A stretch of DNA of 64,000 bases from contig CAVRET010000002.1 in the NCBI GenBank assembly GCA_963720265.1, positions 750,069-814,068 of the forward strand, in the 5' to 3' direction. This document shows positions 18,267 to 54,700 of the stretch, one piece after another. Within the stretch, counting starts at the first letter, position 1; each line of letters begins with the position of its first letter. Source of the DNA: an uncultured bacterium. GTDB lineage: Bacteria; Patescibacteriota; Saccharimonadia; UBA4664. The notes under the pieces were generated by a model, which did no database searches, was not told the DNA's origin, and was given only the letters and a program-made list of their open reading frames with translations. The translations under genes were made by a program, and so were the position numbers.

Positions 18267-18315
18267 ACTTTCACTATACTCGGTAAAGCTGGGAGCATCC
18301 TGGTACAATCTTCCT

Positions 18316-36777: not shown

Positions 36778-37647
36778 TTGGTTATGACCCACAAACAGCT
36801 CGAACTCCAGGCCGACCAAATCCGCGAAGATATCATCAAGATGCTGGTTGAGGCGGGGAGTGGGCATGCCGCCGGACCTTTGGGCCTCGCCGATATCTTT
36901 ACCGCCCTCTATTTCGAAATTCTTAACCACCGCCCCAAAGAACCGGATTGGCCGGACCGCGACCGCCTTATTCTCTCAAACGGCCACACCGTACCGGTGC
37001 GCTACGCCACTATGGCTCGGGCCGGCTACTTCCCGGTCTCGGAGTTGAAAACCCTGCGCAAATTCGGTTCCCGCCTCCAGGGTCACCCCGAACGGGTGCG
37101 CCTGCCTGGCCTCGAAACTACCTCCGGCCCGCTCGGATCCGGTCTCTCGCAAGCCGCTGGCATGGCGCTTGCCCTGCGCATGGACGGCCGCACCAACCGC
37201 GTCTACTGCATCACCGGCGACGGCGAGCTCGACGAGGGGAATGTCTGGGAAGCAGCCCTGTTTGCACCCAACAAAAAGCTCAACAACCTCACCGTTATCG
37301 TCGACCGCAACAACATTCAGATCGACGGCCCCACCGAGCGCGTCATGCCGCTTGGTGACCTAGCCGAGAAGTGGGCCGCCTTTGGCTGGCACGTTATCGA
37401 GATCGACGGCCACAACTTCGAGGCCATCATTGCCGCGTGCAACCTGGCCAAAGCTGTGGTGGAACGCCCCACCGTCATCATTGCCCACACTATCCCGGGC
37501 AAGGGCGTCGACTTCATGCAATATGATTACCACTGGCACGGCTACTTCGCCGACGTGCCGGGTGCGCCCAAGGCCAGCGACCAGGCCCGGGTAGCGCTAC
37601 ACGAACTCCGCACTCTGGCCGGCCGGATCAGGAGCGAACATGAGTAA
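36778..37647 (+). CDS. transketolase, N-terminal (TPP-binding) subunit
   Basis: GSGHAAGPLGLADIF..., SNGH, and GDGELDEGNVWEAA (GDG...E...N ThDP-binding motif). 289 aa, the split form. Confidence 0.85.
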   Translation: MVMTHKQLELQADQIREDIIKMLVEAGSGHAAGPLGLADIFTALYFEILNHRPKEPDWPDRDRLILSNGHTVPVRYATMARAGYFPVSELKTLRKFGSRLQGHPERVRLPGLETTSGPLGSGLSQAAGMALALRMDGRTNRVYCITGDGELDEGNVWEAALFAPNKKLNNLTVIVDRNNIQIDGPTERVMPLGDLAEKWAAFGWHVIEIDGHNFEAIIAACNLAKAVVERPTVIIAHTIPGKGVDFMQYDYHWHGYFADVPGAPKASDQARVALHELRTLAGRIRSEHE

Positions 37648-37927
37648 GGCCAAGACCCACAAGCAGGCCGCGTCCGTCGCAGCGCCGATGTGGCAGTTCT
37701 ATGCGGCTTGGCCGGCTACCTTGGCCTTGGTGGTGACGGTCTGGTATGCGGCGCCCTTTCTATGGCTCATGCTGCTGCCGATCTTATTTAATATCATCGT
37801 TACGCTAACCATTGTTACGGTCAGGTCCAGCCGCACCAAGCTCTTGCTCCTAGCAGCTTGCTATCTTAATCTGGCTGTTATGATTGAGTTCATGCTGCAC
37901 TATTGCCTGTTAAACATGTGTACATGA
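37640..37927 (+). CDS. small hydrophobic membrane protein (95 aa)
   Basis: An ORF overlapping the tkt-N stop by 8 nt, with three TM-like segments. Support is weak beyond its position. Confidence 0.3.
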   Translation: MSKAKTHKQAASVAAPMWQFYAAWPATLALVVTVWYAAPFLWLMLLPILFNIIVTLTIVTVRSSRTKLLLLAACYLNLAVMIEFMLHYCLLNMCT

Positions 37928-38385
37928 GATCCGGCGGAACGCTTAAGTTTGCACTTGCCGCCATCGTAGTCGTCATTGTAGTGGGCGGTCTGGCCGTGGG
38001 CATATTCACCTGGATGTCGCACAAACAGGCCGACACTCGTACCGCCCTGGAAAGCGGCTATGCCACGCAGCCGCTTGGCGCGCCGTTTGTACTCGAATCC
38101 AAAGCCTGGAACGCCGGCCCGGAACAGTGGCAATACAACTACACTGCCAATGTAAATCCGGCCGCGGCTATCATCGCGGCCAAAGCCCAGCTCGGCCGCG
38201 GCGCCTACCAAGTCGACGCCAATCAACCGGATGTCATTAATAATGCTGCCGGCACCGCGACGTTGTATCGTGACCTCATCACTGAAGATGTTGCCTTGAC
38301 TATGCATATCCAGCCTCCCGCAGCCCAAGGCTCAGCCCCGATCACGATTGCAACCGTCACCCTCAGCTCACTCGCGGGCCAGTAG
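37924..38385 (+). CDS. membrane-anchored hypothetical protein
   Basis: N-terminal TM (LKFALAAIVVVIVVGGLAVGIF) followed by a soluble domain. The start is probably MRSGGT. Confidence 0.4.
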   Translation: MRSGGTLKFALAAIVVVIVVGGLAVGIFTWMSHKQADTRTALESGYATQPLGAPFVLESKAWNAGPEQWQYNYTANVNPAAAIIAAKAQLGRGAYQVDANQPDVINNAAGTATLYRDLITEDVALTMHIQPPAAQGSAPITIATVTLSSLAGQ

Positions 38386-38423: not shown

Positions 38424-39413
38424 ATGATCGACCCCCAGCAACATCTCACGCCGGACCTCGCAAGTCCGGAAATCAAGCAAGAACCGATCCGGGCTGGATT
38501 TGGCCGCGGCCTGCTCGAAGCCGCCCACCACGACAAAAACATTGTGGCGCTCTGCGCCGACCTTACCGAATCAACCAAAATGAACGAATTTGCGAAGAGC
38601 TACCCTGAACGCTTTGTGGAAATCGGCATCGCCGAACAAAATCTCGTTACGGTCGCCGCCGGCATGGCGCTGGCTGGCAAAACGCCGTTCGTGTCCAGCT
38701 ACGCCGCGTTTTCGCCCGGCCGCAACTGGGAGCAAATCCGCACTACAATCTGCCTCAACCAGACAAACGTTAAAATCGTGGGCAGCCACGCGGGTGTATC
38801 AGTTGGGCCGGACGGTGCCACACACCAGATGCTCGAGGATATTGCCCTCATGCGCGTTCTACCCGGCATGACCGTGGTCGTCCCGACGGACTCGGTTGAG
38901 GCGTTTAAGGCTACCCAGGTGCTCGCTGCCTATCGTGGTGCCGCCTATGTGCGCTTGGCGCGGGAAAAATCGCCCGTGATCACTACGGAACAATCGCCGT
39001 TTTCGCTTTCCAAGGCCCAAATTCTCCGCCACGGTTGCGATCTCACCATTGTTGCCTGTGGCACTCTCGTGTATCAGGCCCTCATGGCCGCCGAAAGCCT
39101 GGCCGCACATCACCAGCTCGAGGTTGAGGTAATTAATGCCGCCGTTATCAAGCCGCTCGATGTTGTCACGATTGTAGCCAGTGCCAAACGCACTGGGGCT
39201 GTGCTTACGGCCGAGGAACATCAAATTACCGGAGGCCTAGGCGGCGCCGTGGCCGAGGCTCTGGCCGATCACTATCCAGTACCCATGGCTCGCGTTGGTT
39301 TGAATGACCGCTTCGGCGAGTCCGGCCGCCCAGACGAGCTCCTCGAACACTTTGGCCTCACCGCGCCTCACATTGCGGACCGCGCCCGCGAACTCCTAAA
39401 ACGCAAAGCCTAA
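38424..39413 (+). CDS. transketolase, C-terminal (pyrimidine-binding) subunit
   Basis: FVEIGIAEQNLVTVAAGMAL..., SHAGVSVGPDGATHQ, and EDIALMR motifs of the transketolase central/C domains. 329 aa. Confidence 0.85.
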   Translation: MIDPQQHLTPDLASPEIKQEPIRAGFGRGLLEAAHHDKNIVALCADLTESTKMNEFAKSYPERFVEIGIAEQNLVTVAAGMALAGKTPFVSSYAAFSPGRNWEQIRTTICLNQTNVKIVGSHAGVSVGPDGATHQMLEDIALMRVLPGMTVVVPTDSVEAFKATQVLAAYRGAAYVRLAREKSPVITTEQSPFSLSKAQILRHGCDLTIVACGTLVYQALMAAESLAAHHQLEVEVINAAVIKPLDVVTIVASAKRTGAVLTAEEHQITGGLGGAVAEALADHYPVPMARVGLNDRFGESGRPDELLEHFGLTAPHIADRARELLKRKA

Positions 39414-39926: not shown

Positions 39927-40496
39927 ATGTCGTCTGCAGGGCTCATCAACCTCGTTAAAACCCGCATCGCTCATATCGGCCTGATTATAGCCGCGAGCGT
40001 TTGGATCGCCGGCGGAATCTTCATGGCCGGGGCCGCTCAGGCCGCCGGCTCTGGCACGCTTACCCTCACTCCGGCCTCCGGCACCTATACGGTCGGCCAG
40101 GCCATCGTCGTTTCGGTCTATGCCAACACCGGCGGCGCGCCCATTAATGCCGTTGAGGCCGATGTCGCATACCCGCAGCAAAAACTGCAGTTTGAGAGCC
40201 TAGATACGAGTGCCTCAGCCTTCAGCATTGCCGCCGCCGGCTCAGGGTCAGGCGGGACTGTTCAGGTTGCACGAGGGAATATTCAACCGGTCACGGGCCG
40301 TGTGCTCGTGGCAGTCATCAACTTTAAAGTTATAGCAGCCGGCTCAGCCGCTTTGCATTTTCTGGCTTCGTCAGCACTCGTTACCAGCACAGACAATACT
40401 AACGCGCTCGGCAGCACTTCCGGTGCTGCATACACGTTGACGCAAACTCAGCCTGCCCGTCATTTTCAAGGCTTTCGTTTTCGCCTCTATTTTTAG
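39927..40496 (+). CDS. cohesin-domain protein with signal anchor
   Basis: TLTLTPASGTYTVGQAIVVSVYANTGGAPINAVEADVAYPQQKLQFESLD...GTVQVARGN...VAVINFKVIAAGSAALHF fits the cohesin beta-sandwich pattern. It is paralogous to the domains in 41461..42567 and 45690..47174. Confidence 0.55.
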   Translation: MSSAGLINLVKTRIAHIGLIIAASVWIAGGIFMAGAAQAAGSGTLTLTPASGTYTVGQAIVVSVYANTGGAPINAVEADVAYPQQKLQFESLDTSASAFSIAAAGSGSGGTVQVARGNIQPVTGRVLVAVINFKVIAAGSAALHFLASSALVTSTDNTNALGSTSGAAYTLTQTQPARHFQGFRFRLYF

Positions 40497-40517
40497 CAAG
40501 GTGCTACACTAAAACAC

Positions 40518-41402
40518 ATGAAGCCTACCATTGTTGCCGCCCGCGCCATGTATGAACGCACGCGCAAAGAACACTTTGCGCTCGGTGCGTTCAATATCGA
40601 CAACCAAGAGACGCTCGTCGCAGTAGCCAGGGCTGCAGCTGCTAAAAAAGCTCCGGTGCTGGTCGAGGTTTCGAATGATGAGGCCGGCATGATCGGCCTG
40701 TCCAACATCCGCTGCTTAGTTGACAACTACCGGGCCGAGTATGGCTTACAAATGTTCGTCAATCTTGACCACTCGCCCAGTGTCGAGGCCGCCAAAGCCG
40801 GTATTGATGCCGGCTTTGAGTTCATTCACATCGACATTTCGCAAGCCAACCACGACGCCACCCTCGATGACATCATTGCTGCCACCAAGGAAGTGGTGGC
40901 GTACGCCAGAACCACCGGCGCGCTGGTGGAGAGCGAGCCGCACTATTTCGGCGGCGGCTCCAACGACTTCGACGGCCCGATCGATTACGAAACCATTAAA
41001 AAATTCTTCACAAAACCGGATGAAGCAGCCAAGTTTGTGGCCGCCACCGGGATTGACACGTATGCCGCCGCCGTCGGCAACCTGCACGGTCACTATCCGG
41101 TACCCAAAGAACTGCACCTCGACCTGCTCCAGCAAGTCCGCGATGCCTTGACGTGCGCAATCTCGCTCCACGGCGGCTCCGACACGCCGCTTGAGCAATT
41201 CGTGCAGGCTGTGAACATTGGCGTGTCCAAAGTCAACATCAACTCTGATATGCGCCACGCCTACCGCACAACACTTGAGGCCCAGCTCGCTGCCAATCCG
41301 CATCAGTCGGCCGTTATCAAACTCGTGGGGCCGGTCATCGACGCTGTCCAGGCGGTTGTCGAAACCAAAATTGATGCCTTTGGCTCAGCCGGTCGTTCCT
41401 AA
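40518..41402 (+). CDS. fba: class II fructose-bisphosphate aldolase
   Basis: FNIDNQETL, VNLDHS, SLHGGSD and HGHYP motifs (zinc-binding His residues) of class II FBA. 294 aa. Confidence 0.85.
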   Translation: MKPTIVAARAMYERTRKEHFALGAFNIDNQETLVAVARAAAAKKAPVLVEVSNDEAGMIGLSNIRCLVDNYRAEYGLQMFVNLDHSPSVEAAKAGIDAGFEFIHIDISQANHDATLDDIIAATKEVVAYARTTGALVESEPHYFGGGSNDFDGPIDYETIKKFFTKPDEAAKFVAATGIDTYAAAVGNLHGHYPVPKELHLDLLQQVRDALTCAISLHGGSDTPLEQFVQAVNIGVSKVNINSDMRHAYRTTLEAQLAANPHQSAVIKLVGPVIDAVQAVVETKIDAFGSAGRS

Positions 41403-41460
41403 GAAAAAGCTTTACGGCCGGTCCTATACTGGTTATGCTATAACAAAAGAACTACCATCT

Positions 41461-42567
41461 ATGAGACGTTATCACTTGCTTCCCTCGATTACTCGTCCCA
41501 AAACCTTTCTCAGCCTTATTCTCAGCACCATTGCCGCAGTGGCAATGGTGGGCGCCGGCGGACTTACCAACTATGCGCAAGCTAGCGGCTCAGCCACGCT
41601 CTATTTCACACCATCATCAGGCACGTATACCGTTGGCCAGACGCTGACCGTCACAATCTATACCAACACTGGCGGCGATCCGGTCAATGCAGTTGAGGCC
41701 GACTTTTCGTATCCCACCTCAACACTGACATTCCAAAGCATTGACGGTAGCAGCTCGGCCTTCGGCATCTCGGCCTCTCAAACCGGTGGTGGTGGTACGG
41801 TTAAAATCGCCCGTGGCAACACGAGCGGACTTACCGGCACAGAGCTCGTGGCGGTTGTGCATTTCACGGTCAGCGCTGCCGGCTCAGGATCACTGAGCTA
41901 TCTCGGCTCGTCCGCGGTGGTACGCAGCACCGATAACCAAAACGTCCTCAGCTCCACTTCCGGCGCCAGCTTTACCCTTGCGGCCGCGTCAACGCCGACT
42001 TCCACGCCCAAGCCTTCAGGCTCCACTCACACTCCCACACCGGCTCCAAGCAGCGGCAGCAAGACCAGTCCCACCCCGAAGCCGTCATCATCCGCCTCGC
42101 CAACGCCCTCAGCCGCCGCCGGCACAACAAGTAACACGCCCAGCCCAACGCCCATCAGTATTAATACCTCGCCCACCCCGGCGCCATCACACAGCTCGAC
42201 CAAAATCTTGGGCATTGCCGCCCTTGGCATTCCGATTCTAGCCCTCCTCGTCCTTGGTGCATTTATTCTCAGCCGCTCGCACATCCCGAGTGTGGCGTCA
42301 CACGGCGCTGACAGCGACGCATTGCCTCTCACCCCGCCCGTTACGCCGTCTGCTCCGACCATGCCGGTAAACGGCACAGCATTGCCGCCCACGCCACCAC
42401 CACCGTCGCCACAGGCACCAGTGCCACCAAGCCAGCCAGTCCCGCCAAGCCAGCCGGCGCCACCGAGCCAAACCACCCCGCCAAGTGGGCCCACCCCGCC
42501 GGCCGCCCAGCCGCCAAACCAGACATTTTACCCGGACGCCAACTCCAAGCACGACGGCCCCGCATGA
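41461..42567 (+). CDS. membrane-anchored cohesin-domain protein with Pro/Thr/Ser-rich linker (scaffoldin-like)
   Basis: Signal peptide, a cohesin-like domain (ATLYFTPSSGTYTVGQTLTVTIYTNTGGDPVNAVEADFSY...), and a long PT/S linker. It also has a TM helix (ILGIAALGIPILALLVLGAFIL) and a Pro-rich tail. Its stop overlaps the next start by ATGA. Confidence 0.6.
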   Translation: MRRYHLLPSITRPKTFLSLILSTIAAVAMVGAGGLTNYAQASGSATLYFTPSSGTYTVGQTLTVTIYTNTGGDPVNAVEADFSYPTSTLTFQSIDGSSSAFGISASQTGGGGTVKIARGNTSGLTGTELVAVVHFTVSAAGSGSLSYLGSSAVVRSTDNQNVLSSTSGASFTLAAASTPTSTPKPSGSTHTPTPAPSSGSKTSPTPKPSSSASPTPSAAAGTTSNTPSPTPISINTSPTPAPSHSSTKILGIAALGIPILALLVLGAFILSRSHIPSVASHGADSDALPLTPPVTPSAPTMPVNGTALPPTPPPPSPQAPVPPSQPVPPSQPAPPSQTTPPSGPTPPAAQPPNQTFYPDANSKHDGPA

Positions 42568-45500
42568 CGCCTAGACTCATCTCTCCCCGTCACGGACAGG
42601 GATTGAAGAGCATGCTTGCCCAACAAAAAGCGCTCTCCTGGGCAACTTTGGTCCCGCTCGTGGCGTTGTGTGTAGTGGTTGGCCTCGTCCTCAGGCCCCA
42701 TTCGCGTGCTGATCAAGTGGATGGGGTAAATTACGAAATCTGCAACGAAGGGTCGCAATATCTTACCAGTCCCTGGACGTACGATGCGCTGGCCAGTGGC
42801 AGCCAAAGTTATACAGTGGCACAGTACGAGGCGCTGTCCGGGTATGGCACGACCTTACCGCCACTGCCTTCATACATTTCGTCCCAGGACTCAACGACTG
42901 AAGCGGCCGTCATCTATGCGCCTGGCAGCACAGTCAATGAGCCGGCCTACAATTTCCCAAACACGCCCATCGTGTCCTTTTTTGAAGGCGGCGCCTATAA
43001 CGACATTGGCTTTGATAGTGTAAGCGGCGATCAGTTCATCGGTGGATCGGCGGCCGGCTATCCGGAGCCCGCGTTTGACGACGGCGGTAATGCCGAGGGC
43101 ATTGATGGGCAAAATGCCACTTTTGATTTTTCAGGCGGAGCCAGCACACTTACCGCTACCGCAAACTCCGGAGCGACGACCATTACGACCGCCGACGCCA
43201 TTCCCGGCTACATTGCCGATCTTACCTTTACCGACGGTTCCACCTACCCGATTGGCAACGTTTCGGGGACAACAATCACGCTGGACTCGCCTCTAACGAG
43301 CAGCGAGTCAGCCGGTAGCGCTGTCTGGGCCAACCGCCAGGCGCCGATTGGCAAGGTGGCATCAGGTGCCAGCCAGGGCGCCACGAGTGTTACGCTCGAC
43401 AGCTCAGCGCTGCCGCTCGTGCAATACGGCAACATTCGAATTGGCGCCGATAATTACACACTCAGTTCGGTCTCGGGTAACCAGTCCGGCTACACGGTCG
43501 GTGTGCCAGGCTTGGATACGGCCTTGGCAGCGGGCACGCCGATCTACTACGACGGCATGGCCGGAGATGTGACTGTCTCGTATCTGAATATTAACAACGA
43601 CCAGCACACCACCACCGGTACCATTTACACCGGTTCCGGCTGGACCATAACCCACGACAACATTCACGACGGCTACTCGAAAGGACCCGGGTACGGCGTT
43701 GCCCTTTACGGTGGCGACGAAGGCACGATTGAGTACAACTGCTTATCCAAAATGGGGGACTATGGCGAGAACATTTTTGGCACCGGCAGCAAATTTGACT
43801 ACAACGAGGTCTACGAATCAAATTACCAGCCCGACCCCGGTTGCGGCTGCTCCGGCGGCGGTAAATGGTGGGGCACGCTCAACTCCGACATCGTAGACAA
43901 CGCCTTCGTTAACGATGGAATCGGCGACAGTGGTTTTGCCATCTGGCTCGACAACGGGAACACCGGCACACTCATATCCGGCAACTTCTTCAACCAAACG
44001 GCCGGCCCGGCCATTTCGAGCGAAACAGGATTCAACCTCGATATTACCGACAACCTGTTCGAGAATGACAACTGGGGGACCGGTGACGGCTGCGGTAACT
44101 CTAATTGTACTGGCGACGTTGGCTTAAATAGCTCCGGCGGCTTCAATATACCCGGCAGCCGCTACAATAACCAGATTAGTATTTCCGATAACCAGTTCAT
44201 TGACGACTGGGGCGGTGTCGGCATCTGGCAATCCGGTGCTCGTTCCTGTGAGAACTCAGGTGAAGGCTGGCCTCAGGATGCCCCGTACTGCTCCGGCGGC
44301 TTCCCGAATTCCTCCAACACGTCAAACGGCGGCCAGTACTATTTCTCTCATATTGCTGACACTCAATATGGCGGCGCTTCCAACGCGGTCGTACAAGCCG
44401 CCTCGTCCGGCAGTACAACGCTTCTGGTCAACGGCTCCATGGCTACGGATGATCAAATCGGCATCGGCGACCCGGCTTCCACCACCACAGCGAGCACCAC
44501 GGATGTCACCTCACTCGCCGGCTCGCAAACGATCAACGCCGCCTCCACCACCGGTTTCCCGAGTTCAGGCCAGTTGCGCGTCGGGACATCAGCGGCCTGG
44601 AGCGACGCCGGCGGCAGCTATACCGGCGCCATCCTAAGCTACACTGGCACAACCGGCACGAGTTTCACCGGTGTGTCGCTCGTGCGCGGCTCCGGCACCC
44701 TAGCCGGCCCCATCCTACAAGTGCAGCCATACAAAATCACGGGTGAAACTTGCTACGCCAACGATTGCGCGCTTACTATCACACCGGGCCTCAGCGCCTC
44801 TGCGGCCGCCGGCGCCGAGGTGAGTAACGCCGGCACCTGCCAGCTCTATGCCACCAGCGCCGCCACGCCGACGAGCCCTCTAGCCCCCAATGGCACCTCG
44901 TACTTTGACGGCTGCCAGTGGGGGACCAAGAACATTAGCATCACCAGCAACAACTTCATCTTCGATCCGACCACCATGGCGGCCAGCGCCCCACTGAGCG
45001 GTGGCAAAACCACCACCTCCTGTACCGCCGACCACAACAACGACTGCGGCACCAACTTCATGGCCTACCAGGAGGCCGGCGAACCACCGTTCAGTACCTT
45101 CATCGGCGGCAACGCCATGTACTCAAACTCTGCCCTCACCTCCTGTCCGTCGTGGGATTCCGGCTGTTCATCCAGCCCTCTCAAAAACATTAACGCCCTA
45201 TCCAACCCGCCCGACGCGCCGGCAAATAACGGTGAGGCAGCGAATAACGACGTGTGGTCAGATAACACCTATTCCGGACCGTGGGCCTGGAATGCCTACT
45301 CATATGGCGGCTGTGACGAGCCGAGCGACCCCACCACCAACAAGAGCATGCCGGCCGGCGCCTGCAGTGTTGACTTCTCCGACTGGCAAACCGACTGGCA
45401 ACAGGATGCCGGCAGCACCTACTCTGCCAGTCCTCAGCCGACACCCACCACCACGGCTACCCCGACCGTCTCGGCCACTCCAACCCCGAGCGCTACCCCC

Positions 45501-45677
45501 TCGTCTTCGCCCTCGGGCACAACAGGCGACCTCAACAACGATGGCCAAGTCAATATCTTCGACCTTTCTATTCTCCTCAGCGACTGGGGTACCAATAATG
45601 CCACTGCCGACCTTAACCACGACGGCACGGTGAATGTTTTCGACCTTTCCATTCTTCTCAGCCATTGGGGGACCTAG
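42564..45677 (+). CDS. dockerin-bearing right-handed parallel beta-helix protein (putative polysaccharide-active enzyme)
   Basis: C-terminal tandem dockerin repeats DLNNDGQVNIFDLSILLSDWG and DLNHDGTVNVFDLSILLSHWG (DxNxDGxVNxxD calcium loops). The centre holds PbH1-like beta-helix repeats (NAFVNDGIGDSGFAIWLDNGNTGTLISGNFF...). N-terminal signal/TM. Confidence 0.7.
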   Translation: MTPRLISPRHGQGLKSMLAQQKALSWATLVPLVALCVVVGLVLRPHSRADQVDGVNYEICNEGSQYLTSPWTYDALASGSQSYTVAQYEALSGYGTTLPPLPSYISSQDSTTEAAVIYAPGSTVNEPAYNFPNTPIVSFFEGGAYNDIGFDSVSGDQFIGGSAAGYPEPAFDDGGNAEGIDGQNATFDFSGGASTLTATANSGATTITTADAIPGYIADLTFTDGSTYPIGNVSGTTITLDSPLTSSESAGSAVWANRQAPIGKVASGASQGATSVTLDSSALPLVQYGNIRIGADNYTLSSVSGNQSGYTVGVPGLDTALAAGTPIYYDGMAGDVTVSYLNINNDQHTTTGTIYTGSGWTITHDNIHDGYSKGPGYGVALYGGDEGTIEYNCLSKMGDYGENIFGTGSKFDYNEVYESNYQPDPGCGCSGGGKWWGTLNSDIVDNAFVNDGIGDSGFAIWLDNGNTGTLISGNFFNQTAGPAISSETGFNLDITDNLFENDNWGTGDGCGNSNCTGDVGLNSSGGFNIPGSRYNNQISISDNQFIDDWGGVGIWQSGARSCENSGEGWPQDAPYCSGGFPNSSNTSNGGQYYFSHIADTQYGGASNAVVQAASSGSTTLLVNGSMATDDQIGIGDPASTTTASTTDVTSLAGSQTINAASTTGFPSSGQLRVGTSAAWSDAGGSYTGAILSYTGTTGTSFTGVSLVRGSGTLAGPILQVQPYKITGETCYANDCALTITPGLSASAAAGAEVSNAGTCQLYATSAATPTSPLAPNGTSYFDGCQWGTKNISITSNNFIFDPTTMAASAPLSGGKTTTSCTADHNNDCGTNFMAYQEAGEPPFSTFIGGNAMYSNSALTSCPSWDSGCSSSPLKNINALSNPPDAPANNGEAANNDVWSDNTYSGPWAWNAYSYGGCDEPSDPTTNKSMPAGACSVDFSDWQTDWQQDAGSTYSASPQPTPTTTATPTVSATPTPSATPSSSPSGTTGDLNNDGQVNIFDLSILLSDWGTNNATADLNHDGTVNVFDLSILLSHWGT

Positions 45678-45689
45678 CGGGAAACACTA

Positions 45690-47174
45690 ATGAAAATCAC
45701 ACGTTTACATCCAGACACCCTTCTAAAGCACGGCAGTCGGATACAGACCGGGGTCTTAAGCCTGGTTGTGGCAGCCGTAGTGGTGGCCGGCGCCTACGTT
45801 GTGAGCCACAGTTTTGCCGACACCAACCAGCTGTACCTTAGTCCGTCCAGCGGCACCGTGCTGCAGGGCAATACGGTCAGCGTGGCAATCCATGAAGATT
45901 CCGGCACGACGGGCGTCAACGCCGTCCAGGCCAACCTAAGTTATGATCCGGCTGAATTTGAATTCGAAAGCATCGATGCCAGTAACAGTGCGTTTGGTGT
46001 AGAGGCCGAGTCCACCGGCGGCAACGGCACTGTAACCATTGCCCGCGGCGTCACCGGCGGCAGCGCCCCACTCACTGGCGATCAGCTGGTGGCCACGGTT
46101 ACGTTCACGGCTTTAGGCAGTGGCGTGAGCGGAGATATTAACTTCGCCAGTGGTTCGGCCGTCGTATCGGCATCCGACAACACCAACATTGTCCAGTCAA
46201 CCGCCGGCGCCAGCTTCGATCTCACCGCACCGGCCACGCCGACGCCCACACCTACGCAAACTCCAGCGCCCACCGCCACCCCAACGCCGGCTCCCGCGCC
46301 CACACCCACAGCCACTCCCACGCCTGCGCCCGCGAGCGCCGGCACCATCTACCTCAATCCTGCCAGCGGTACGATCACAAATGGCTCCGACCTGATCTTT
46401 GATATCCACGAAGACTCCGGTTCCACGCCGGTCAACGCCGTCCAGGCCAACTATGATTATTCCACCAGTGATTTCCAATATGTTTCAATTTCAGCCGCAA
46501 ATAGCGACTTTGCGGTCGAAGCCCAAACCTCGGGCGATAACGGCCAAATCCGCATTGCCCGCGGCGTCACCGGCGGCAGCGCCCCACTCACCGGCGACCA
46601 CATTGTGGCAACAGTCACGCTCAAAGCCGTTACTAGTGGTACCGCCGCCCTCACGGCCGCTTCCGGCTCGGCAATCGTCAGCTCCGACACTAATTCCAAT
46701 ATTCTCAGCAGTCAAACCGGCGGTAGCTACACGCTCACCGGCGGAACCGGTAGTAGTACAAGCACAACACCCGCGCCAACACCAAAACCTTCGTCACCCA
46801 CCCCGGTTTCAATTACCGGCGGCAGCGAACCCATTCCGGTGAGCGACACCATCCAACTCTCGAGCCCATCCCTTAGCTCTAGCGCCGCCACTACTTACAC
46901 GCTCGACGGGCAAAGCGTTAGCGGCGACACCGTCGACACCTCTGATCTGAGCGACGGCGACCACACCATTACCGCTACCCAAACCGTGAATGGCAAGACT
47001 ACTGAGGTCAAACAAACCATCTCGGTCCACAACAAGTCGGCCGGGTCCAATCCCTTCACGGTCGTTTTGGGTGCTGCCAAGCCGGCCTTGCCCTATATCG
47101 TGGTCGTAGTGATCGTAATACTGCTGGCAACCGCCGGCTTCGTGTTCATCCGCCGCGGACCAACCGGGATCTAG
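45690..47174 (+). CDS. membrane-anchored protein with two cohesin domains (scaffoldin-like)
   Basis: Two repeats of the cohesin-like module (GTVLQGNTVSVAIHEDSGTTGVNAVQANLSYDPAEFEFESID..; GTITNGSDLIFDIHEDSGSTPVNAVQANYDYSTSDFQYVSI..) separated by a TP-rich linker. C-terminal TM anchor. Confidence 0.6.
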   Translation: MKITRLHPDTLLKHGSRIQTGVLSLVVAAVVVAGAYVVSHSFADTNQLYLSPSSGTVLQGNTVSVAIHEDSGTTGVNAVQANLSYDPAEFEFESIDASNSAFGVEAESTGGNGTVTIARGVTGGSAPLTGDQLVATVTFTALGSGVSGDINFASGSAVVSASDNTNIVQSTAGASFDLTAPATPTPTPTQTPAPTATPTPAPAPTPTATPTPAPASAGTIYLNPASGTITNGSDLIFDIHEDSGSTPVNAVQANYDYSTSDFQYVSISAANSDFAVEAQTSGDNGQIRIARGVTGGSAPLTGDHIVATVTLKAVTSGTAALTAASGSAIVSSDTNSNILSSQTGGSYTLTGGTGSSTSTTPAPTPKPSSPTPVSITGGSEPIPVSDTIQLSSPSLSSSAATTYTLDGQSVSGDTVDTSDLSDGDHTITATQTVNGKTTEVKQTISVHNKSAGSNPFTVVLGAAKPALPYIVVVVIVILLATAGFVFIRRGPTGI

Positions 47175-47423: not shown

Positions 47424-50400
47424 CTACTGCGTCACAAAGTAGCTGTATTTGTAGGTAGTAGCACCAGACAAGTTGTTGCTGTTGGTTTCAAGGCTAAAGC
47501 CCGTGGTTGACGGCGACGTGTAATACTGCAGCGCCGAACCATTGGCTGCGGCCGGCGTCAGTACCACGTTGGGTGTAGCACCAAACACATTGGAAAACGT
47601 AATATCAGCCAAATCACCGGCCGCCGAGCATGGCCCCGCACCGGTCGTAATAGTAATCGTGCCGCTGGTATCATCGCCGGTCACACTCACACTGGCAGTC
47701 CCGCTGCAATTCGCCGCCGCTCCGGCCGCAATGCCGGGCGTGCTGCCGCCGGTAATAATATGGCCGTCAACCGTTAGGTTGGCCGTCACCACGAGCGAGC
47801 TGACCGTAACCGTCATGGTCGTGGTATCGGCTGTCAGCACTGCTGCGCCCATTTGATTTTGAACCTGGAAAGCCGAGGTCGAATCAGTCGGAGTTTTAAT
47901 GAGCGTTTGCCCCAGCCCACTCACCTCAAACACGGATTGATCCGCGGCGTTGCGAATCATTACTCCCTCATCCGCGGTGTTCTGCACCGTCAGCACCGTA
48001 GCCGATTTTGTCACAATGTTGGCCCCAGTCACGTTCGACCCTTCGCGGCCGATTGTCCAAGCTGTATCCGACGGCCCGTTAAGGTAAATCGCCTGGTTGT
48101 TATCCAGCGAAACGTTGCCGTTTGCGATCTGCAAAGCTTGCTGCGGCGCCGACGTGCCGATACCAACATTGCCGCTGCGGTCAATTACCAGGCTGTCGCT
48201 TAGGCTATCGGTCGTAGAATCTGCCACCGGATTAATCGGCACACCAATGTCGGCCCAATCGGCGGTATCAACAAACCAGCTCATATCAACATTACCGCCG
48301 GTGCCGGGCGCATCAGCGCCGCCCTCGCCGTACACCGACGATGTATTTGGCAGGTACCACATTTGGCTCTGAGTGTCGGCGCTGTAGAGGCTGCTATTGT
48401 TGTTCGTCACACCAATCGCATCGACTACCAATTGCGATGTGCTGGTCGTGGGCACCAAAAGATTCGTTGCCTGGTAACCGGTTGTGGTACCGCTAGCCGT
48501 GGCAAACGTGCCCAGCGGCGTGGTTTGATCAACGTTGTAGAACGTGGCCGCACCAATCGAGCCGGTGCCGGCTGAACTCATGGTGGCAACGATATCATAG
48601 CTACCACTCGGCGGATTCAAAAGGTACCACAGCTCAACATGCGCGCCCACCGGATCAACCACCTGCGGCGAGTTTTTGGCTGCAATCTGCGTCAGCGCCA
48701 AGCCGTTATAGGTGACCGCGGTGAATGTGCGCTGCTGATTCGTCTCAACTTGCACTAGCATCAACCGGTTACTTTCGGAGCCGGTTGTAAAGCCGCTTAG
48801 GGTAACCGTGCTGCTGCCAAAGCTTGCAATCTCCCCCGTGTTATCAACGGTTACCGCGCTAGCGCCGGGCTTAGCGGTCCGGAAGATAAACGAGCCCGAG
48901 CCGGCAGCACCAGTGCCGTTAGAAGCGTCGAATGTAATATTGCCGCCACTGGCGTTGGTGCCCGTCGCCTCCCCACCGCGCACGGTCAAATCTTGCGGCG
49001 TTCCATCTTGCCCCAAAATAATCGCCATATCGGTCGTATCTGCGGAAATAAGCGACGCTCCGGCGGCATTCTGGATCGCAAAGGCGTCCGTTGAATCGGC
49101 CGGATCCTTAAACACTGCCGAACCCTCAACGTCTAAGTTGGCACTTGGCGTGGTGGTACCGATGCCAACCGATGCGGTGCTACCGGTAAAGAAGCCGGAG
49201 TCGGCAGCCAGCGTCTGAGACTGGATGGAATTGAGCGCAGTTGGTATGACTGCTACTTCGGCGATTTCGCCGGTAAACGGACCGTTAAAGGGGTCGTCGC
49301 CAATATACCACGAGCCCGTGTAGCTCTGAGGTGTATTGTACGAAGGGTTCGAGGCTACCAATTGGCCGTCTACGTAGAGATACATGCCGGCGCTGGACAC
49401 GCTGGCAACCGCGATATGCCAACTGCCGTCATTGACGGCCGCCGAACTTGTAATTACTTCGTTGCCAAGAATGTTGTTATAAATGCGGAAATTCAACTTG
49501 CCGCTGCCGTCAATAAAGAGTTCCCTATCATGTGCAGCGCCGCCAACGCCGCCGATCAGCTCGCCCTCGTTAGTGGTATTAAACATTACGACCTGGCTAA
49601 ACGTTGTCGGCAGGGTTGCGGAATTCGCCGTCGTAATTTCACTCGGGCTGGCTGAATTAAATGCCATCGCTGGTTGTGTATTGTCGCACGAGAATGGGCC
49701 CGGGGTCTGGTTCGTGGTGACATTCGAGAGCGTGCCGGTGTTGTTATTGCCCGAGCTGTCGGCTCCCGTAGCACCGGTATCATCAAGCTTCCAATACGCG
49801 TCAGGCGCAAAACTGTCCACATAGTTCTCATAAGTGGAGACTCCACAGTTGGTGGGTGCGTTAACAGTTAGGGTGCCGTTACCCGAATCAAAGTTTAGCG
49901 ACGGATTACCGCTGGCATTTTGAACCTGGAAAGCCGAAGACGAATCAGTGCCGGGCTGAACGATCACGCTTCCACCCGCGCCGGTCCCGGCAGCGGCCCC
50001 GCTTTGCAATACCAAGTTGCCGCCGTTGCCATTGCCGCCGGCGTTCCCGGCCGCAATCGTCAAATCACCGCCAGTCCCACCGGAGCCGGCAATCTTCCAA
50101 GTCGAACTGGTAGCGGCTGTAATGTCGAGCGCGCCGGTGGTAGTGGTGTAACTAGCGCCGCCGGACGTAGCGGCAATATTTGCACCGCTAATGTTAATAA
50201 AACCACTGCCGCCACTGATGTTCACGCCGCCGCCATAAATCGAGGTCGGCGCGAGCATTGCGGAGTTGCCAATAGTTATTTCTTGCGCGTTCGTGGCGCC
50301 CAGGTCGAGCGCTGCCGTCGCCGAAGACGAACTAAGATCAGTAATCGTAACGTCATCAATGTAGTGCACCTCCCCAATAGTCTGGGCGTCGTTGGCTGAG

Positions 50401-51752
50401 AAGTAATAGCCCATCTCCGTTGCACCCACCGGCGCCGTTAATACGCCTACGACTTTGCGCCAACCGGTTGAAATATCCGTAACCGTCCCGAAGTCCTGCG
50501 TCGAAATTGCGCCGCCGCCGTAATATCCGTTACTTGACCATGTCACTCCGGCGGTGATGTTGTCCGAGTTTGTGGCCGCCCGCACCCAAGCCTCAACGGC
50601 GTAGGTATGGCCCTGGGTAACCGGAATAATCATTGGTGGATTTGTTATACCGTCTGCGGTTTCCCATCTCGGAAAGTAGTTGCTGCCAACGGCGATTGAC
50701 AAGCTGTGGGTACCGCTGTGGGCCTGGGCATTCGTTTGGGTTATAACCGAATTGTCGCCAAAGATGCCGTCGCCCATGTTGTCAATGCCGTCCTCGAATG
50801 TCTTATCGTCGATCAAGGTGCCTGATAGCACGCTATTTCCGGTATCAATTGAGACATTGCCGGCCGCTGTCGTGGACGAATCTCCGGACTGGAGGGTAAT
50901 ATTACCGCTCGAGCCGGTGCTGCTGCCGGTGATAATGGCGACATCTCCGGTACCACCTTGCAACAATGCGGCACTGGCACCCTCGGCTGAACCCAAACTC
51001 ACATTTTCCACGCCGTTGCCGGTACTCAGGTTGTTGCCGCTTTGAGTCACCATTGAGCTGCCAAGCGTCGTGGCATCGGTGAAGTAGGCGAGTGATCCCG
51101 CGGTTCCGCCCACGGCCGCCACTCCGCCGCCCGCGCTGTTAGTTACGTTCGTAACATCGGTAAGATTGGTGACGTTTGTGGTATTGCCGGCCTGGTTCGT
51201 TACATTTGTGACATTGTTGGTCACATTACCGCCGCCCAGCAGATTTAAGAACTGCTTACCGTTGTAATACTCCAGTACGTTACCGGTCTGATCATAATAC
51301 AGCTCACCGGCGACCGCCGAGGTCGGCTGCGAGCTCGGTACAAGCACGATCGGGCCGGTGACGTTAAGCTGGCCGTTGACAGTCAACTGCCGGCCGCCAG
51401 CTGTCTGCCCGGCTGCCAGCGACTGGCTAACGTCTGCCAGTGGCACTGATTGCGAGGTCGGCAATTGGGCAAGCAGCGCCGAGCTGGCCGCCGGCGGATT
51501 GTTCGCCGCTGAGGCCACAAAATACACGCCGGCCCCAAACGCCGCAATGATGAGCGCAAACCCGGCCATGCGCTGAAGTGACATGAACGGCTTTTTGTCG
51601 CTCGGCCGGGGTGGTTGCGGGCTTGGGTGCGTCTCATCGGCTGACTGCACCGGTGTCGCCTCTGGCACGGCCTGTAGATTCTCCGGCTTCTCATACGTTG
51701 CGTCATGGTTGAGATCAATTGGCTGGTTTGAGCCTGGGGTAATATCGTTCAT
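47424..51752 (-). CDS. giant surface protein (1442 aa), paralog 2
   Basis: Start ATG 51752 overlaps the upstream stop by ATGA. N-terminal cytoplasmic stretch plus TM (FMSLQRMAGFALIIAAFGAGVYF), then an NVTNNVTNVTN repeat stalk and LamG-like lectin regions. The conserved C-terminal domain is shared with 51749..59131. Confidence 0.7.
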   Translation of the reverse strand: MNDITPGSNQPIDLNHDATYEKPENLQAVPEATPVQSADETHPSPQPPRPSDKKPFMSLQRMAGFALIIAAFGAGVYFVASAANNPPAASSALLAQLPTSQSVPLADVSQSLAAGQTAGGRQLTVNGQLNVTGPIVLVPSSQPTSAVAGELYYDQTGNVLEYYNGKQFLNLLGGGNVTNNVTNVTNQAGNTTNVTNLTDVTNVTNSAGGGVAAVGGTAGSLAYFTDATTLGSSMVTQSGNNLSTGNGVENVSLGSAEGASAALLQGGTGDVAIITGSSTGSSGNITLQSGDSSTTAAGNVSIDTGNSVLSGTLIDDKTFEDGIDNMGDGIFGDNSVITQTNAQAHSGTHSLSIAVGSNYFPRWETADGITNPPMIIPVTQGHTYAVEAWVRAATNSDNITAGVTWSSNGYYGGGAISTQDFGTVTDISTGWRKVVGVLTAPVGATEMGYYFSANDAQTIGEVHYIDDVTITDLSSSSATAALDLGATNAQEITIGNSAMLAPTSIYGGGVNISGGSGFINISGANIAATSGGASYTTTTGALDITAATSSTWKIAGSGGTGGDLTIAAGNAGGNGNGGNLVLQSGAAAGTGAGGSVIVQPGTDSSSAFQVQNASGNPSLNFDSGNGTLTVNAPTNCGVSTYENYVDSFAPDAYWKLDDTGATGADSSGNNNTGTLSNVTTNQTPGPFSCDNTQPAMAFNSASPSEITTANSATLPTTFSQVVMFNTTNEGELIGGVGGAAHDRELFIDGSGKLNFRIYNNILGNEVITSSAAVNDGSWHIAVASVSSAGMYLYVDGQLVASNPSYNTPQSYTGSWYIGDDPFNGPFTGEIAEVAVIPTALNSIQSQTLAADSGFFTGSTASVGIGTTTPSANLDVEGSAVFKDPADSTDAFAIQNAAGASLISADTTDMAIILGQDGTPQDLTVRGGEATGTNASGGNITFDASNGTGAAGSGSFIFRTAKPGASAVTVDNTGEIASFGSSTVTLSGFTTGSESNRLMLVQVETNQQRTFTAVTYNGLALTQIAAKNSPQVVDPVGAHVELWYLLNPPSGSYDIVATMSSAGTGSIGAATFYNVDQTTPLGTFATASGTTTGYQATNLLVPTTSTSQLVVDAIGVTNNNSSLYSADTQSQMWYLPNTSSVYGEGGADAPGTGGNVDMSWFVDTADWADIGVPINPVADSTTDSLSDSLVIDRSGNVGIGTSAPQQALQIANGNVSLDNNQAIYLNGPSDTAWTIGREGSNVTGANIVTKSATVLTVQNTADEGVMIRNAADQSVFEVSGLGQTLIKTPTDSTSAFQVQNQMGAAVLTADTTTMTVTVSSLVVTANLTVDGHIITGGSTPGIAAGAAANCSGTASVSVTGDDTSGTITITTGAGPCSAAGDLADITFSNVFGATPNVVLTPAAANGSALQYYTSPSTTGFSLETNSNNLSGATTYKYSYFVTQ

Positions 51753-54700
51753 TGTGCCACCCAATAGTTCCATTCATAGGTCGACGTATTCGACGGAGTT
51801 GTGCCGGTGCCAAGGTCAAAACTGGTGGGGGAAACAGTACTGTCGTCAACGTATGCGTTAAGTGCTGCGGCATTAGATCCGCCGGCCGTCAGCGTTACGT
51901 GCGGCGCAGCGCCAAACGCTGTCGCAAACGTGATGGTGGCAAGCTTCCCGCTGGCGGAGCAGCCCGACCCGGTCGTAATCGTAATGGTACCGCTCGTGTC
52001 ATCGCCGGCTACACTCACGGTTGGGCTGGTGCAAGCAGCGGTCCCGGCCGCAATCCCGGGCGTGCTCCCGCCGGTAATCACGTGACCGTCCACCGTTAGG
52101 TCGGCCGAAACGGTGAGCGCCGTCACGGTCACGATCATGTGAGTCGTGTCGGCGGTCAGCAACGGGGTATTGCCGGTATTCTGTACCACAAAGGCCGTCG
52201 CTGAATCGCTAGAGTTTTGGAACGTAGTCGCGCCGTTGCCGTCGATTGACACCACCGGAGTACCACCGTTGTTTTCGATCTGAAGCGTCTCAAACGGAGA
52301 GCTCGTCGATGCCACGTTTTGCAGCGTGAAGCTGTCGTACGCTGTCGCTGAGCCGTTCCAGTAATTACTCAAAAGCTGCAGGCCGTCAGAGTTTGCTGTC
52401 GGCACGAAAGAAGTGGCATTGGTGGGTGCTTGTAATTGCACGTCATGATCAACAGTGTCGACGTCAAATTCGGGTGCACCACCGCTGTCCATAACCCCGA
52501 ACGCGCCGAGTGAATTAACATACCCGACGCTCGTAGTGCCTGATACTTGTAGTGCGGAAACGGTCGGCGCGGTGTCGATACCCACCCGGCCATTAACCGT
52601 GTCCACGTCAATGACATCTGAGCCGGTGGCATCTTGCACCTGGAACGCAGATGTGGAATCAGTGCTATTTTGTAGGGTCGCTGCGCCGCTGGTCGTCAGG
52701 TTGAAGAGCGAACCGTGGAAGATGTCGCTCGTGCCACTGTACGAGCCGTAGATCGCCAAGTGGTAGTTGCCGTTGCCGTCATCGGTGCCGTTGCCAAACC
52801 AACTCGCATTCCAGGTACCAGGGGTTACACTGCCCTGGAAAAAGTCGGAGCCGCTGCCATCACACGTCGCGTAAAATACATCGCCTGAGCTCGACGTTCC
52901 GATGACCAGCCAGTAATTGGTACCGACCGTAACATTGAGCGGAGTATCGAGCGTAATATTGTTCCAGTTTGGACTGCCAGGCGACGGCGCAGTGATTGTC
53001 TGTGTGCCGGTGTGTTGGTCGAGGAGGGTTCCTGGCGTGCCCGCATTATCGCTGTAGATAGCCACGGAAAACGGGTCCCCGCCGCCGCTGTCAAACGCCA
53101 CGTTAAGCGACGTCAGCGTGCCGTTGGCCTGGGCCGTATACTGTGTTGTCTGGTCCTCGTTAGAGTTACTGTCATTGCACGAATTCGTCATACTGGCGAG
53201 ATTGTTGCCAATCACAACCGCTTGCTGAGCCGTTGCTGCTGAGTTGATGTTAAATGAATCGCCGGCATTTGGATTCACGCCCTCGTAGAAACTCGTGTTG
53301 GCATCAGCCAGTTGAATCGACGAATCGCCCGACCCCGCCTGCTGCACCGTTAGCTGCGAGGCGGTCGTAGTGTCGTTGTTGGACTGGACAACGACGCCGG
53401 TATTGCCCGAGGCCGCGCCGAGCGTGACCGTCTGGTTTGTTCCGTCCACCGAGATTAGGTTCACCCCGGCGGCAGTCTGCACCTGGAATGCGGTGCTGGT
53501 ATTGTTGGGGTCACGGAATAGCGCCGTACCTTCGTCGTCAATGTTGGCCTGCGGAGAAGTCGTGCCAACACCGATTGACGCCAGCTCAGCGTTATACACG
53601 CCCGCATCTGTCGCCAGCGTCTGAATCTGCGGTGCTGTAACAACCGAAAGCGAAACGGCAGCCTGCGAGATCTCGCCGTCAAAAGCGGTATTGCTCATAT
53701 TGGGCCAACTGGCGCCAAAGGAATTGCCGATCCACCAAGTGCCGTTGGTGTAGTCGGCCGGGTTATTGTAGCCGGGATTTGCCCCCACCAGCCGGCCGTC
53801 TAGGTATAAGAACAAGCCGCTGCTTGATTCAGTCACGACCGCCATGTGCCAATTGCCGTCTGCCACCGAGCCCGCACTTGATATTACCTGTACGCCCTGG
53901 CCGTTGTTGAAAATCCCTGCATACAGCCGGCCGTCTGTGCCGACGTACATCTCACGGTCCCAAGACGTTACGTTATCGCTAAACGATTCCAACACGCCGC
54001 TTCCGCCGTTGGTCTTAAACAATGCGATCTCGCTGTAGACATTCGGCGAATTGATTGCGTTTGGTGTGGTAATTTGGCTGTTGCTGGCGCTACTAAACAA
54101 CATCGCTGGATGGCTTGGGGCGCACGTGAATGCACCCGGTGTCTGGTCGGGCGTCACATTGGAAAGCGTGCCGTCGTTGCCGTTGCCGGAACTATCGACC
54201 GCGGTCGAGCCGGTGTCCTCCAGCTTCCAGTACGATGCCGGGCTCAAGCCGTTCATAGCGCTTACATAATCCGAATAATCACACCCGGCAGTATTATTAA
54301 CGATTAAATTACCGGTGTCATTTATGTCGTCGTTTGCCGTATCGGCCGTAAACAACGCATTGCCGGCAGCGTCCTGAATCTGGAAAGCTTGGGTTGAATC
54401 AGATGCATCTTGGAAATTGGCATCCCCACCAACATCTAGCGTATGGGTCGGATTCGAAGTGCCGACGCCGACGCCGTTGCTTCCGATAACCAGGCTATCA
54501 CTCAACGTGTCGGTTATAGAGTTAGAAGTCGGGTTAATTGGTACGCCAATGTCCGCCCAGTCGGCGTTGTTAACCGACCAGTTCATGTTGACCGTGCCAC
54601 CAGTACCAGGAGCATACGACCCGGCCGCCGGCCAATTGCCGCCGGACGGCGGTTGGTTCCAGATCTGAGTCTGGCCCGGGTTGACCGTCGGGTCATCGCC

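Follow-up and report, generated by a model that had tools for sequence, protein, structure and literature searches.

The window analysed here is a stretch of 64,000 nucleotides of contig CAVRET010000002.1 (assembly GCA_963720265.1) from an uncultured bacterium, and our subject is a locus at positions 39927-47174 in which three genes for cohesin proteins accompany a gene whose product ends in a dockerin. Four open reading frames (ORFs) are present on the plus strand at 39927-40496 (189 amino acids), 41461-42567 (368 amino acids), 42564-45677 (1037 amino acids) and 45690-47174 (494 amino acids). These are the coordinates and the strand given in a preliminary description of the window, and a public gene call agrees on the lengths of 189, 368 and 1037 amino acids. 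An identical public contig of 12.2 kb carries the same gene calls of 189, 294, 368 and 1037 amino acids, the fourth gene of the locus being truncated by the contig end. In the mechanical ORF list the 368-amino-acid gene has a longer start, a TTG at 41218, that would overlap fba. The latter gene (class II fructose-bisphosphate aldolase; 40518-41402, plus strand; NCBIfam TIGR01859, E 4e-55, below the equivalog cut-off) sits between the first and second cohesin genes, and the locus is indeed interleaved with fba as had been described. A six-frame scan of the window with a hidden Markov model (HMM) built from the four cohesin modules, together with a regular expression for the dockerin, found exactly four cohesin modules and one dockerin.

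The dockerin gene has a cohesin gene on each side. Downstream, the 494-amino-acid gene starts 12 nucleotides past the stop of the dockerin gene, and dockerin, stop codon and cohesin share a reading frame across 45519-46235. Upstream, the spacing depends on an ambiguous start: the ATG at 42564 (1037 amino acids) produces an ATGA overlap with the stop of the 368-amino-acid gene, while the NCBI/ENA record uses M17 at 42612 (1021 amino acids), leaving a gap of 45 nucleotides. The overlap, and with it the co-translation proposed in the preliminary description, therefore holds for the first start and is lost with the second. Homologues of the protein have a median of 57 residues ahead of a conserved Cys motif, compared with 62 for the start at 42564 and 46 for that at 42612, and they have long basic n-regions; the N-termini of the homologues mildly favour 42564. 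Whichever start is used, the gap to the 368-amino-acid gene is no more than 45 nucleotides. A scan for consensus promoters and terminators between 36.5 and 47.6 kb gave nothing above shuffled expectation. All four proteins begin with an N-terminal hydrophobic segment followed by an AxA-type site.

We found that the 1037-amino-acid protein ends, as had been claimed, in a tandem dockerin (45522-45674, plus strand; amino acids 987-1037). The Pfam profile Dockerin_1 (PF00404) matches amino acids 988-1031 with 32.4 bits, the cut-off being 22.9 (E 1.1e-7); with a score of 27.5, NCBIfam dockerin_GC falls a little short of its cut-off of 29. The module consists of two near-identical calcium-loop segments on the plus strand, the first at nucleotides 45528-45593 (DLNNDGQVNIFDLSILLSDWGT) and the second at nucleotides 45609-45674 (DLNHDGTVNVFDLSILLSHWGT). 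Each is 22 amino acids long, 18 of the 22 positions are identical and a linker of 5 amino acids separates them. Both have D or N at calcium-loop positions 1, 3, 5, 9 and 12 (D-L-N-N-D-G-Q-V-N-I-F-D and D-L-N-H-D-G-T-V-N-V-F-D), and in the AlphaFold2 (AF2) model helices are placed at amino acids 998-1006 and 1025-1033 with a predicted local distance difference test (pLDDT) score of about 90. The dockerin is compact, at 44 amino acids against 51 profile positions. Its sequence matches in the PDB are the cellulosomal dockerins 2y3n_B and 1daq and the Clostridium perfringens dockerin 2jnk/2ozn, the last with a single one-residue gap. A 51-amino-acid dockerin query of a large protein database returned just 22 short fragments, none of them from the 1.1 Mb contig that carries the window proteins.

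In the case of the cohesins, the 494-amino-acid protein matches Pfam Cohesin (PF00963) over two stretches with a score of 44.8 bits, where the cut-off is 24.1 (E 1.8e-11). The modules of the 189- and 368-amino-acid proteins are 38-57% identical to these two passing modules over about 145 residues, with 33 invariant columns, and orthologues of both proteins have precomputed PF00963 matches; as judged from the alignment, the four modules are mutually homologous. Of the four, the module of the 368-amino-acid protein was the one modelled. Its AlphaFold model shows a beta-sandwich at amino acids 45-175, most of which has pLDDT above 90, and a helix at amino acids 257-272. Every one of the top 47 Foldseek matches to this model in the PDB is a cohesin (best E 4.8e-10, target TM-score 0.64-0.78); among them are type I cellulosomal modules (6kgf, 1g1k, 2vn5), that of Archaeoglobus fulgidus (2xdh) and those of C. 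perfringens. The preliminary description had made its case depend on a cohesin fold, and this is the fold that was recovered.

The 189-amino-acid protein (39927-40496, plus strand) has a signal at amino acids 13-38 with an AQA-A site and a single cohesin at about nucleotides 40035-40451, which scores E 2e-66 with our own HMM and is 57% identical to the module of the 368-amino-acid protein. It has neither a linker nor a C-terminal transmembrane helix and so would be a free or N-terminally held cohesin. The 368-amino-acid protein (41461-42567, plus strand; supported by the ORF, the public gene call and the AF2 model) has the layout of a type I membrane protein: a signal peptide at nucleotides 41500-41571, a cohesin at 41572-42006, a Pro/Thr/Ser linker at 42007-42192 that would form a stalk of about 60-70 amino acids, a transmembrane helix at about 42193-42294 and a Pro-rich tail of about 90 amino acids, predicted to be cytoplasmic, at 42295-42564. 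This tail ends in NQTFYPD.NSK, a motif that is kept in the orthologues P0121, P0122, P0132, P0134 and P0135; its conservation may point to a partner inside the cell or to a signal for sorting. The 494-amino-acid protein (45690-47174, plus strand; Pfam Cohesin, own HMM and hydropathy) is bivalent. A signal at nucleotides 45732-45821 is followed by cohesin 1 at 45810-46250, a TP linker, cohesin 2 at 46323-46769, a further linker, a small membrane-proximal beta domain at about 46806-47033 and a C-terminal transmembrane helix at 47055-47162 with the tail RRGPTGI. Its two modules score 1e-69 and 4e-70 with our own HMM, and the architecture occurs also in P0127, P0130 and P0144, both anchored architectures being recurrent among database relatives. 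The membrane anchoring that had been proposed for the 368- and 494-amino-acid proteins is borne out by C-terminal transmembrane helices in both (hydropathy, and for the former the AF2 model). Pfam searches found no SLH module, sortase signal, CBM of any kind (CBM3 included) or multi-cohesin scaffoldin in the three cohesin proteins, and the maximum in the window is two cohesins per protein.

The protein that carries the dockerin (42564-45677, plus strand, with the alternative start at 42612) is the candidate cargo of these anchors. Its signal peptide has a hydrophobic segment at nucleotides 42624-42704 and a conserved H-S-x-A site; a body of several domains, rich in Cys and containing a right-handed beta-helix, follows at about 42708-45425 and a Pro/Thr linker at 45426-45521 leads to the dockerin. 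Across the cargo family the signal-peptidase-like site is conserved as H-S/T-x-A and 16 cysteines are invariant, which fits an extracellular protein. The fold is a right-handed parallel beta-helix of the pectin-lyase type, and the nearest structural matches of the body are capsule depolymerases, tailspikes, glycoside hydrolases (GH) of families GH110 and GH87, the RbmB lyase and polysaccharide lyases (PL) of family PL6. The description of the body as pectate-lyase-like is thus correct at the level of the fold; in contrast, the cargo matches no CAZy-type catalytic family in Pfam or NCBIfam searches, nor any such family through PDB sequences, and no PL or GH family can be assigned.

The cargo family is large, with more than 100 clusters that are 52-71% identical over most of their length, and most members are about 950 amino acids long without a dockerin. 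Among the 120 homologues listed, 26 have a dockerin-like C-terminus, and there are others that end in FN3 or Big_7 tails. Two orthologues that lack the dockerin, on contigs of 1.13 Mb and 0.80 Mb, sit within surface-polysaccharide clusters that encode SIS and HAD heptose-phosphate enzymes, a GHMP kinase with a nucleotidyltransferase, glycosyltransferases, Wzy_C, Wzz and a heparinase II/III-like protein. It is because of this gene context that our analysis points to a role for the cargo in glycan processing. The closest non-identical homologue, P0002 of locus L002, is 71% identical and bears a dockerin. A scan of GTDB genomes with the cargo protein gave two loci, and at L004:1-8492, a locus named Candidatus Saccharimonadales, three dockerin-tipped beta-helix paralogues are encoded consecutively.

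A metagenome scan that was seeded with the cohesin alone returned 78 loci, 66-68 of them unique, and in these dockerin genes tend to lie close to cohesin genes. There are 2.38 dockerin ORFs per 10 kb at distances of up to 1.5 kb from a cohesin, 0.4 at 1.5-6 kb and 0.09 beyond 6 kb, so that the density next to cohesin genes is about 25-fold that beyond 6 kb. A dockerin ORF lies within 3 kb in 28 of the 35 loci that are at least 5 kb long. In 27 loci a dockerin-only ORF is no more than 500 nucleotides from a cohesin ORF; there are 28 such ORFs, of which 26 share the strand of the cohesin. Ten neighbouring cargos all match Pfam Dockerin_1, nine above the cut-off and one at 20.0 against 22.9 bits. 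The cargos are hydrolases and binding proteins of extracellular type: two are S8 subtilases, one is an M12 metalloprotease and one a GH5-like enzyme that has FN3 domains (L017), and there are Big_7, CARDB and NHL proteins. At L054:3-9798 four consecutive dockerin proteins, among them an S8 subtilase with FG-GAP repeats, are encoded directly upstream of a cohesin gene.

The cohesin subfamily itself is widespread: an exhaustive profile search found 6,131 representative clusters when the threshold was E<=1e-3 and 2,238 when it was E<=1e-10. Adaptor-like ORFs, in which a cohesin at the N-terminus is combined with a dockerin at the C-terminus, occur in 20 loci, and proteins of this kind of about 500 amino acids are numerous (L024, L036, L046 and others). 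Among the top 137 cohesin representatives a transmembrane helix past the last cohesin is found in 69 and a dockerin in 22, and none has both. This split is the pattern expected of anchors as opposed to adaptors, and a cohesin-dockerin network that works would be divided among anchors, adaptors and cargos in just this way. One member of the same cohesin subfamily, P0198 (2276 amino acids), has nine cohesin modules. The presence of adaptors and of large scaffoldins suggests hierarchical assemblies that go well past the system in the window; the term 'minimal' used in the preliminary description may mislead, given the adaptors and the scaffoldins of up to nine cohesins in relatives.

These findings make it probable that the locus encodes a non-cellulosomal, membrane-anchored cohesin-dockerin display system; its host is a soil bacterium with a small genome, probably one of the Candidatus Saccharimonadales (Patescibacteria). 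The identity and fold of the modules, the topology signals and the linkage of the genes across relatives are shown by the analysis; the binding of the pair, its dependence on calcium, the catalytic activity and the substrate are inferences. The 1037-amino-acid protein would be exported by the Sec route with a cleavable signal peptide and would fold outside the cell as a right-handed beta-helix protein of several domains, rich in disulfides, and would act on polysaccharide; its fold and the gene context of its orthologues suggest that it is depolymerase-like or glycan-modifying. Its internally symmetric C-terminal dockerin, which we infer to be calcium-binding, would plug non-covalently into one of the four cohesins encoded next to it. 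The Pro/Thr-rich stalks of the two type I membrane cohesin proteins would hold the cohesin off the membrane, and the cargo would thereby be retained at the cell surface and not diffuse away. The bivalent 494-amino-acid protein could hold two dockerin proteins. The substrate could be the cell's own surface glycan, or else the envelope or extracellular polymeric substance of a host bacterium.

Several observations weigh against this interpretation. Two of the four cohesin modules fail to be recognised alone, since the 189- and 368-amino-acid proteins have no PF00963 match in Pfam even at E<1; of the modules that the preliminary description had called cohesins, that profile accepts those of the 494-amino-acid protein and misses the others, despite their 38-57% identity to the passing pair. 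A profile of all four modules gave marginal matches among PDB sequences (E 0.12-0.95), with solved cohesins at E 0.2, and it was for this reason that the fold search was needed. The body of the cargo has no match besides the dockerin in Pfam (to E 1), NCBIfam (to E 0.01) or PDB sequences, and its structural matches are just 8-16% identical and include the non-enzymes NosD, the PfbA adhesin and Vag8. The assignment of the host is also indirect, being based on the names of two relatives and on contig sizes of about 1.1 Mb. The neighbours of the closest cargo homologue in L002 are unusual for the candidate phyla radiation (CPR), being porphobilinogen deaminase, HEM4, TatA/TatC and a major facilitator superfamily transporter, and some other cargo homologues carry the label Trebonia or Gammaproteobacteria; these labels and neighbours may be due to mis-binning or to horizontal transfer between bacteria of the soil. 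Finally, four cohesins are set against one dockerin within the window, and L006, which has an anchored cohesin after fba, has no dockerin gene within 10 kb. The true partner or partners may be encoded elsewhere in the genome.

This last point leads to a different account of the same genes, in which the modules are genuine and the neighbours are not cognate. The dockerin would then bind a cohesin from elsewhere or a ligand that is not a cohesin, the local cohesins would take other dockerins, and adjacency would reflect a shared neighbourhood of surface-protein genes. The numerical imbalance in the window and the lone anchored cohesin of L006 both speak for it, as does the absence of a cohesin from the surrounding DNA covered for P0002 and for the three tandem dockerin paralogues of L004. 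Dockerins without detectable cohesins are also common according to a survey of noncellulosomal modules, as cited in PMC10066038. Against this stand the steep fall in dockerin density with distance from cohesin genes among the relatives, where the partners usually share a strand and lie within 500 nucleotides, and the position of the window's own dockerin gene, flanked at short spacing by cohesin genes on both sides. We consider it rather unlikely that the neighbours are mismatched.

The display system could, alternatively, mount an attachment device, with a cargo that is an adhesin or receptor-binding protein, for example one that fixes an episymbiont to the glycans of its host. Such a role is compatible with the display mechanism itself and concerns what is displayed. 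The lack of any catalytic family or motif in the cargo (Pfam, NCBIfam) is in keeping with it, as are the giant surface proteins with Laminin_G_3 and CBM_4_9 domains encoded nearby; Wang et al. 2023 (PMC10633639) propose adhesion or degradation for an essential dockerin protein of a Saccharibacterium. The best structural matches of the cargo, however, are enzymes (GH110, GH87, the RbmB lyase, PL6 and capsule depolymerases), its orthologues lie within clusters for the biosynthesis and processing of polysaccharide and the cargos of related loci are mostly hydrolases. We therefore doubt that adhesion is the function of the cargo and favour an enzyme that acts on glycans.

A small true cellulosome for the degradation of plant cell walls is highly improbable. 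Cohesin and dockerin modules are present, one related locus (L017) has a GH5-like dockerin enzyme and a neighbouring giant protein has a CBM_4_9 domain. On the other side, CBM3, a multi-cohesin scaffoldin, SLH modules and sortase signals are all missing from the three cohesin proteins, the anchors are C-terminal transmembrane helices, and a classical cellulosome was rejected on these grounds. The window has no cellulase. The dockerin cargo in the window is the beta-helix protein alone, whose family is tied to surface-polysaccharide clusters, and in related loci the cargos are mostly proteases and Ig-like proteins, with one GH5-like enzyme. A genome of about 1.1 Mb is atypical of cellulolytic specialists, and with relatives named Candidatus Saccharimonadales the non-cellulosomal setting that had been proposed for the locus is upheld. 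The notion that the beta-helix gene is a remnant of a prophage tailspike or depolymerase gene, prompted by the phage capsule depolymerases and tailspikes at the top of its Foldseek matches, was likewise rejected and is scarcely credible because none of the four proteins has a PHROG match (0/4) and the cohesin pattern has no match among the viral contigs of IMG/VR; furthermore, the neighbours are housekeeping and surface-protein genes and the cargo, with its Sec signal and dockerin, is a member of a chromosomal family in which it has more than 100 close homologues.

It is mainly through cellulosomes that cohesin-dockerin pairs are known; elsewhere they have been for the most part a curiosity of bioinformatics, with a few structural studies. 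The clostridial type I pairs of C. acetobutylicum (CaCohA2-Doc0917, 6kgc-6kgf), C. cellulolyticum (1g1k, 2vn5/2vn6) and C. thermocellum (2ccl) share the cohesin fold with the window and are its best Foldseek matches (E 5e-10 to 1e-7, target TM-score 0.68-0.74), although the identity of the window cohesin to solved cohesins is just 6-21%. Their dockerins, like that of the window, are duplicated calcium-loop and helix modules, and the internal symmetry of the window dockerin resembles that of type I dockerins with a dual binding mode. The window dockerin differs in its compactness and its 5-amino-acid linker between segments. The window differs from the clostridial cellulosomes further in having C-terminal transmembrane anchors in place of a CBM3-bearing multi-cohesin scaffoldin, SLH modules or a sortase signal, a beta-helix cargo without family assignment in place of a cellulase, and a host genome of about 1.1 Mb that is probably of the CPR.

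Two systems from outside the cellulosome are closer in kind. Archaeoglobus fulgidus, which is not cellulolytic, likewise has a cohesin and a dockerin that stand alone, and its cohesin (2xdh) is the sixth-best structural match and the one with the highest identity (21%) among the top matches. That pair is archaeal and thermophilic, unlike the window, and we know of no membrane-stalk architecture or linked neighbourhood of cargo genes in A. fulgidus. The glycoside hydrolase (toxin) complexes of C. perfringens, with cohesin (X82) and dockerin modules (2ozn/2jnk, 2jh2, 2vo8, 2w1n), are also non-cellulosomal and the pair joins secreted glycan-degrading enzymes. Its dockerin has the same compact length as that of the window, with a single one-residue gap, and its cohesins were recovered by Foldseek. 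In C. perfringens, however, both modules are carried by large soluble enzymes that assemble with one another, whereas in the window the cohesins are on dedicated small membrane anchor proteins. The A. fulgidus cohesin-dockerin is in use as a working binding pair (PMC12484212). The statement that such minimal systems are experimentally undescribed was too strong, because the A. fulgidus and C. perfringens modules have been solved structurally (2xdh, 2jh2, 2vo8, 2ozn/2jnk) and the former pair has been put to use.

The cargo, for its part, is 8-16% identical to the beta-helix proteins of known structure that it resembles, namely GH110 (9beh), the GH87 alpha-1,3-glucanase (7c7d), the Vibrio RbmB lyase (9ozd), PL6 alginate lyases, the AlgG and AlgE4 epimerases and phage capsule depolymerases (7vul, 7w1c), and in comparison with these it adds highly conserved N- and C-terminal domains, many disulfide cysteines and the dockerin. 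Another dockerin protein is relevant to the biology of the host. SEML1_0315 is a cell-envelope protein with a dockerin domain in the cultured Saccharibacterium Southlakia epibionticum and was found by transposon sequencing (Tn-seq) to be essential for epibiotic growth (Wang et al. 2023, PMC10633639). Its authors speculate that it targets host glycans and they mention no cohesin partner, the word 'cohesin' occurring 0 times in their paper (PMC10633639). It comes from the candidate class to which the window organism probably belongs and is likened to the window protein here by description. In the searchable literature we found no description of cohesins in Saccharibacteria.

What is distinctive about the locus and its relatives is that the cohesins are borne by dedicated single-pass membrane proteins, that among the dockerin cargos there are proteases and glycanases as well as a depolymerase-like beta-helix protein, and that cohesin genes are tightly linked to dockerin genes, the cohesin subfamily counting 2,238 representative clusters when the threshold is E<=1e-10. 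If the hosts are Saccharibacteria, which the indirect evidence favours, this would provide a testable mechanism by which epibionts of ultrasmall size and tiny genome place extracellular enzymes on their surface and exchange them, and it would provide candidate partners for the essential dockerin protein of the cultured Saccharibacterium. Looking further, we put forward as a tentative possibility that a large cohesin-dockerin network, of which the window shows one case, is typical of soil Saccharibacteria and perhaps of other small-genome bacteria. Such a network would consist of transmembrane-anchored cohesin sockets on long stalks with the conserved FYP-motif tail in the cytoplasm, of adaptors, and of dockerin cargos that can replace one another (depolymerase-like beta-helices, subtilases, metalloproteases, GH5). 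With these on its surface the epibiont would be armed for attachment to the envelope of its host, or for stripping or digesting that envelope, and the cohesins might be the missing receptor side of the essential S. epibionticum dockerin protein. The compact dockerin and the small cohesins could also become new orthogonal parts for designer protein display.

The genes around the locus are largely those of central metabolism and of the cell surface. Upstream lie genes for 6PGL, 6PGD, G6PD and GAPDH, rpe and a split transketolase, the halves of which (36778-37647 and 38424-39413) are both upstream of the locus and do not enclose it as had been stated. Two small membrane-protein genes (37640-37927 and 37903-38385) separate the genes for the N- and C-terminal subunits of transketolase, and they do so in L001 and L006 also. 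The order tktC-fba-anchored cohesin is kept in two other lineages (L006-L008/L011 and L020), in which the orthologues of the 368-amino-acid protein share its architecture. The presence of fba is a matter of conserved synteny and the gene is not a functional part of the display system; that glycolytic genes stand among those of the locus suggests the gene order of a compact genome more than a functional link. In L006, which has no gene for the 189-amino-acid cohesin, the anchored cohesin gene is followed directly by the orthologue of a giant surface protein that the window encodes on the minus strand. By comparison with this order the window has three extra genes, those for the beta-helix-dockerin protein, the bivalent cohesin and the 189-amino-acid cohesin.

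Two giant surface-protein genes, at 47424-51773 (minus strand, 1449 amino acids) and 51749-59131 (minus strand, 2460 amino acids), overlap by 25 nucleotides and converge on the locus. The 1449-amino-acid protein has Laminin_G_3 and CBM_4_9 domains, and no dockerin or cohesin was found in either protein. They look like paralogues because both match the same 1077-amino-acid orthologue in L006. The window proteins are found on a contig of 1,108,292 bp and relatives on contigs of 1.13 and 1.15 Mb, two of the relatives being named Candidatus Saccharimonadales; these sizes and names point indirectly, and with fair confidence, to a Saccharibacterium as the host. Rfam and tRNA scans of the window were empty, with no rRNA, tRNA or marker gene. 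The GC content is about 57-60%, a correction to the earlier wording of a high-GC genome. The genome had also been called F420-containing. A luciferase-like oxidoreductase at 16390-17262 (minus strand) does exceed the cut-off of the NCBIfam F420-dependent LLM model TIGR03560 (280 against 231 bits), and its neighbour at 17259-18575 (minus strand), also luciferase-like, falls just below that of TIGR03557 (209.1 against 210.4); the claim rests on these two genes. F420-dependent enzymes would be unexpected in a CPR-type genome of about 1.1 Mb and so matter for the assignment of the host. Near the start of the window, at 4794-5621 (plus strand), lies a gene for an IS982-family transposase (NCBIfam NF033520, E 5e-35, 121 bits against a cut-off of 130 bits).

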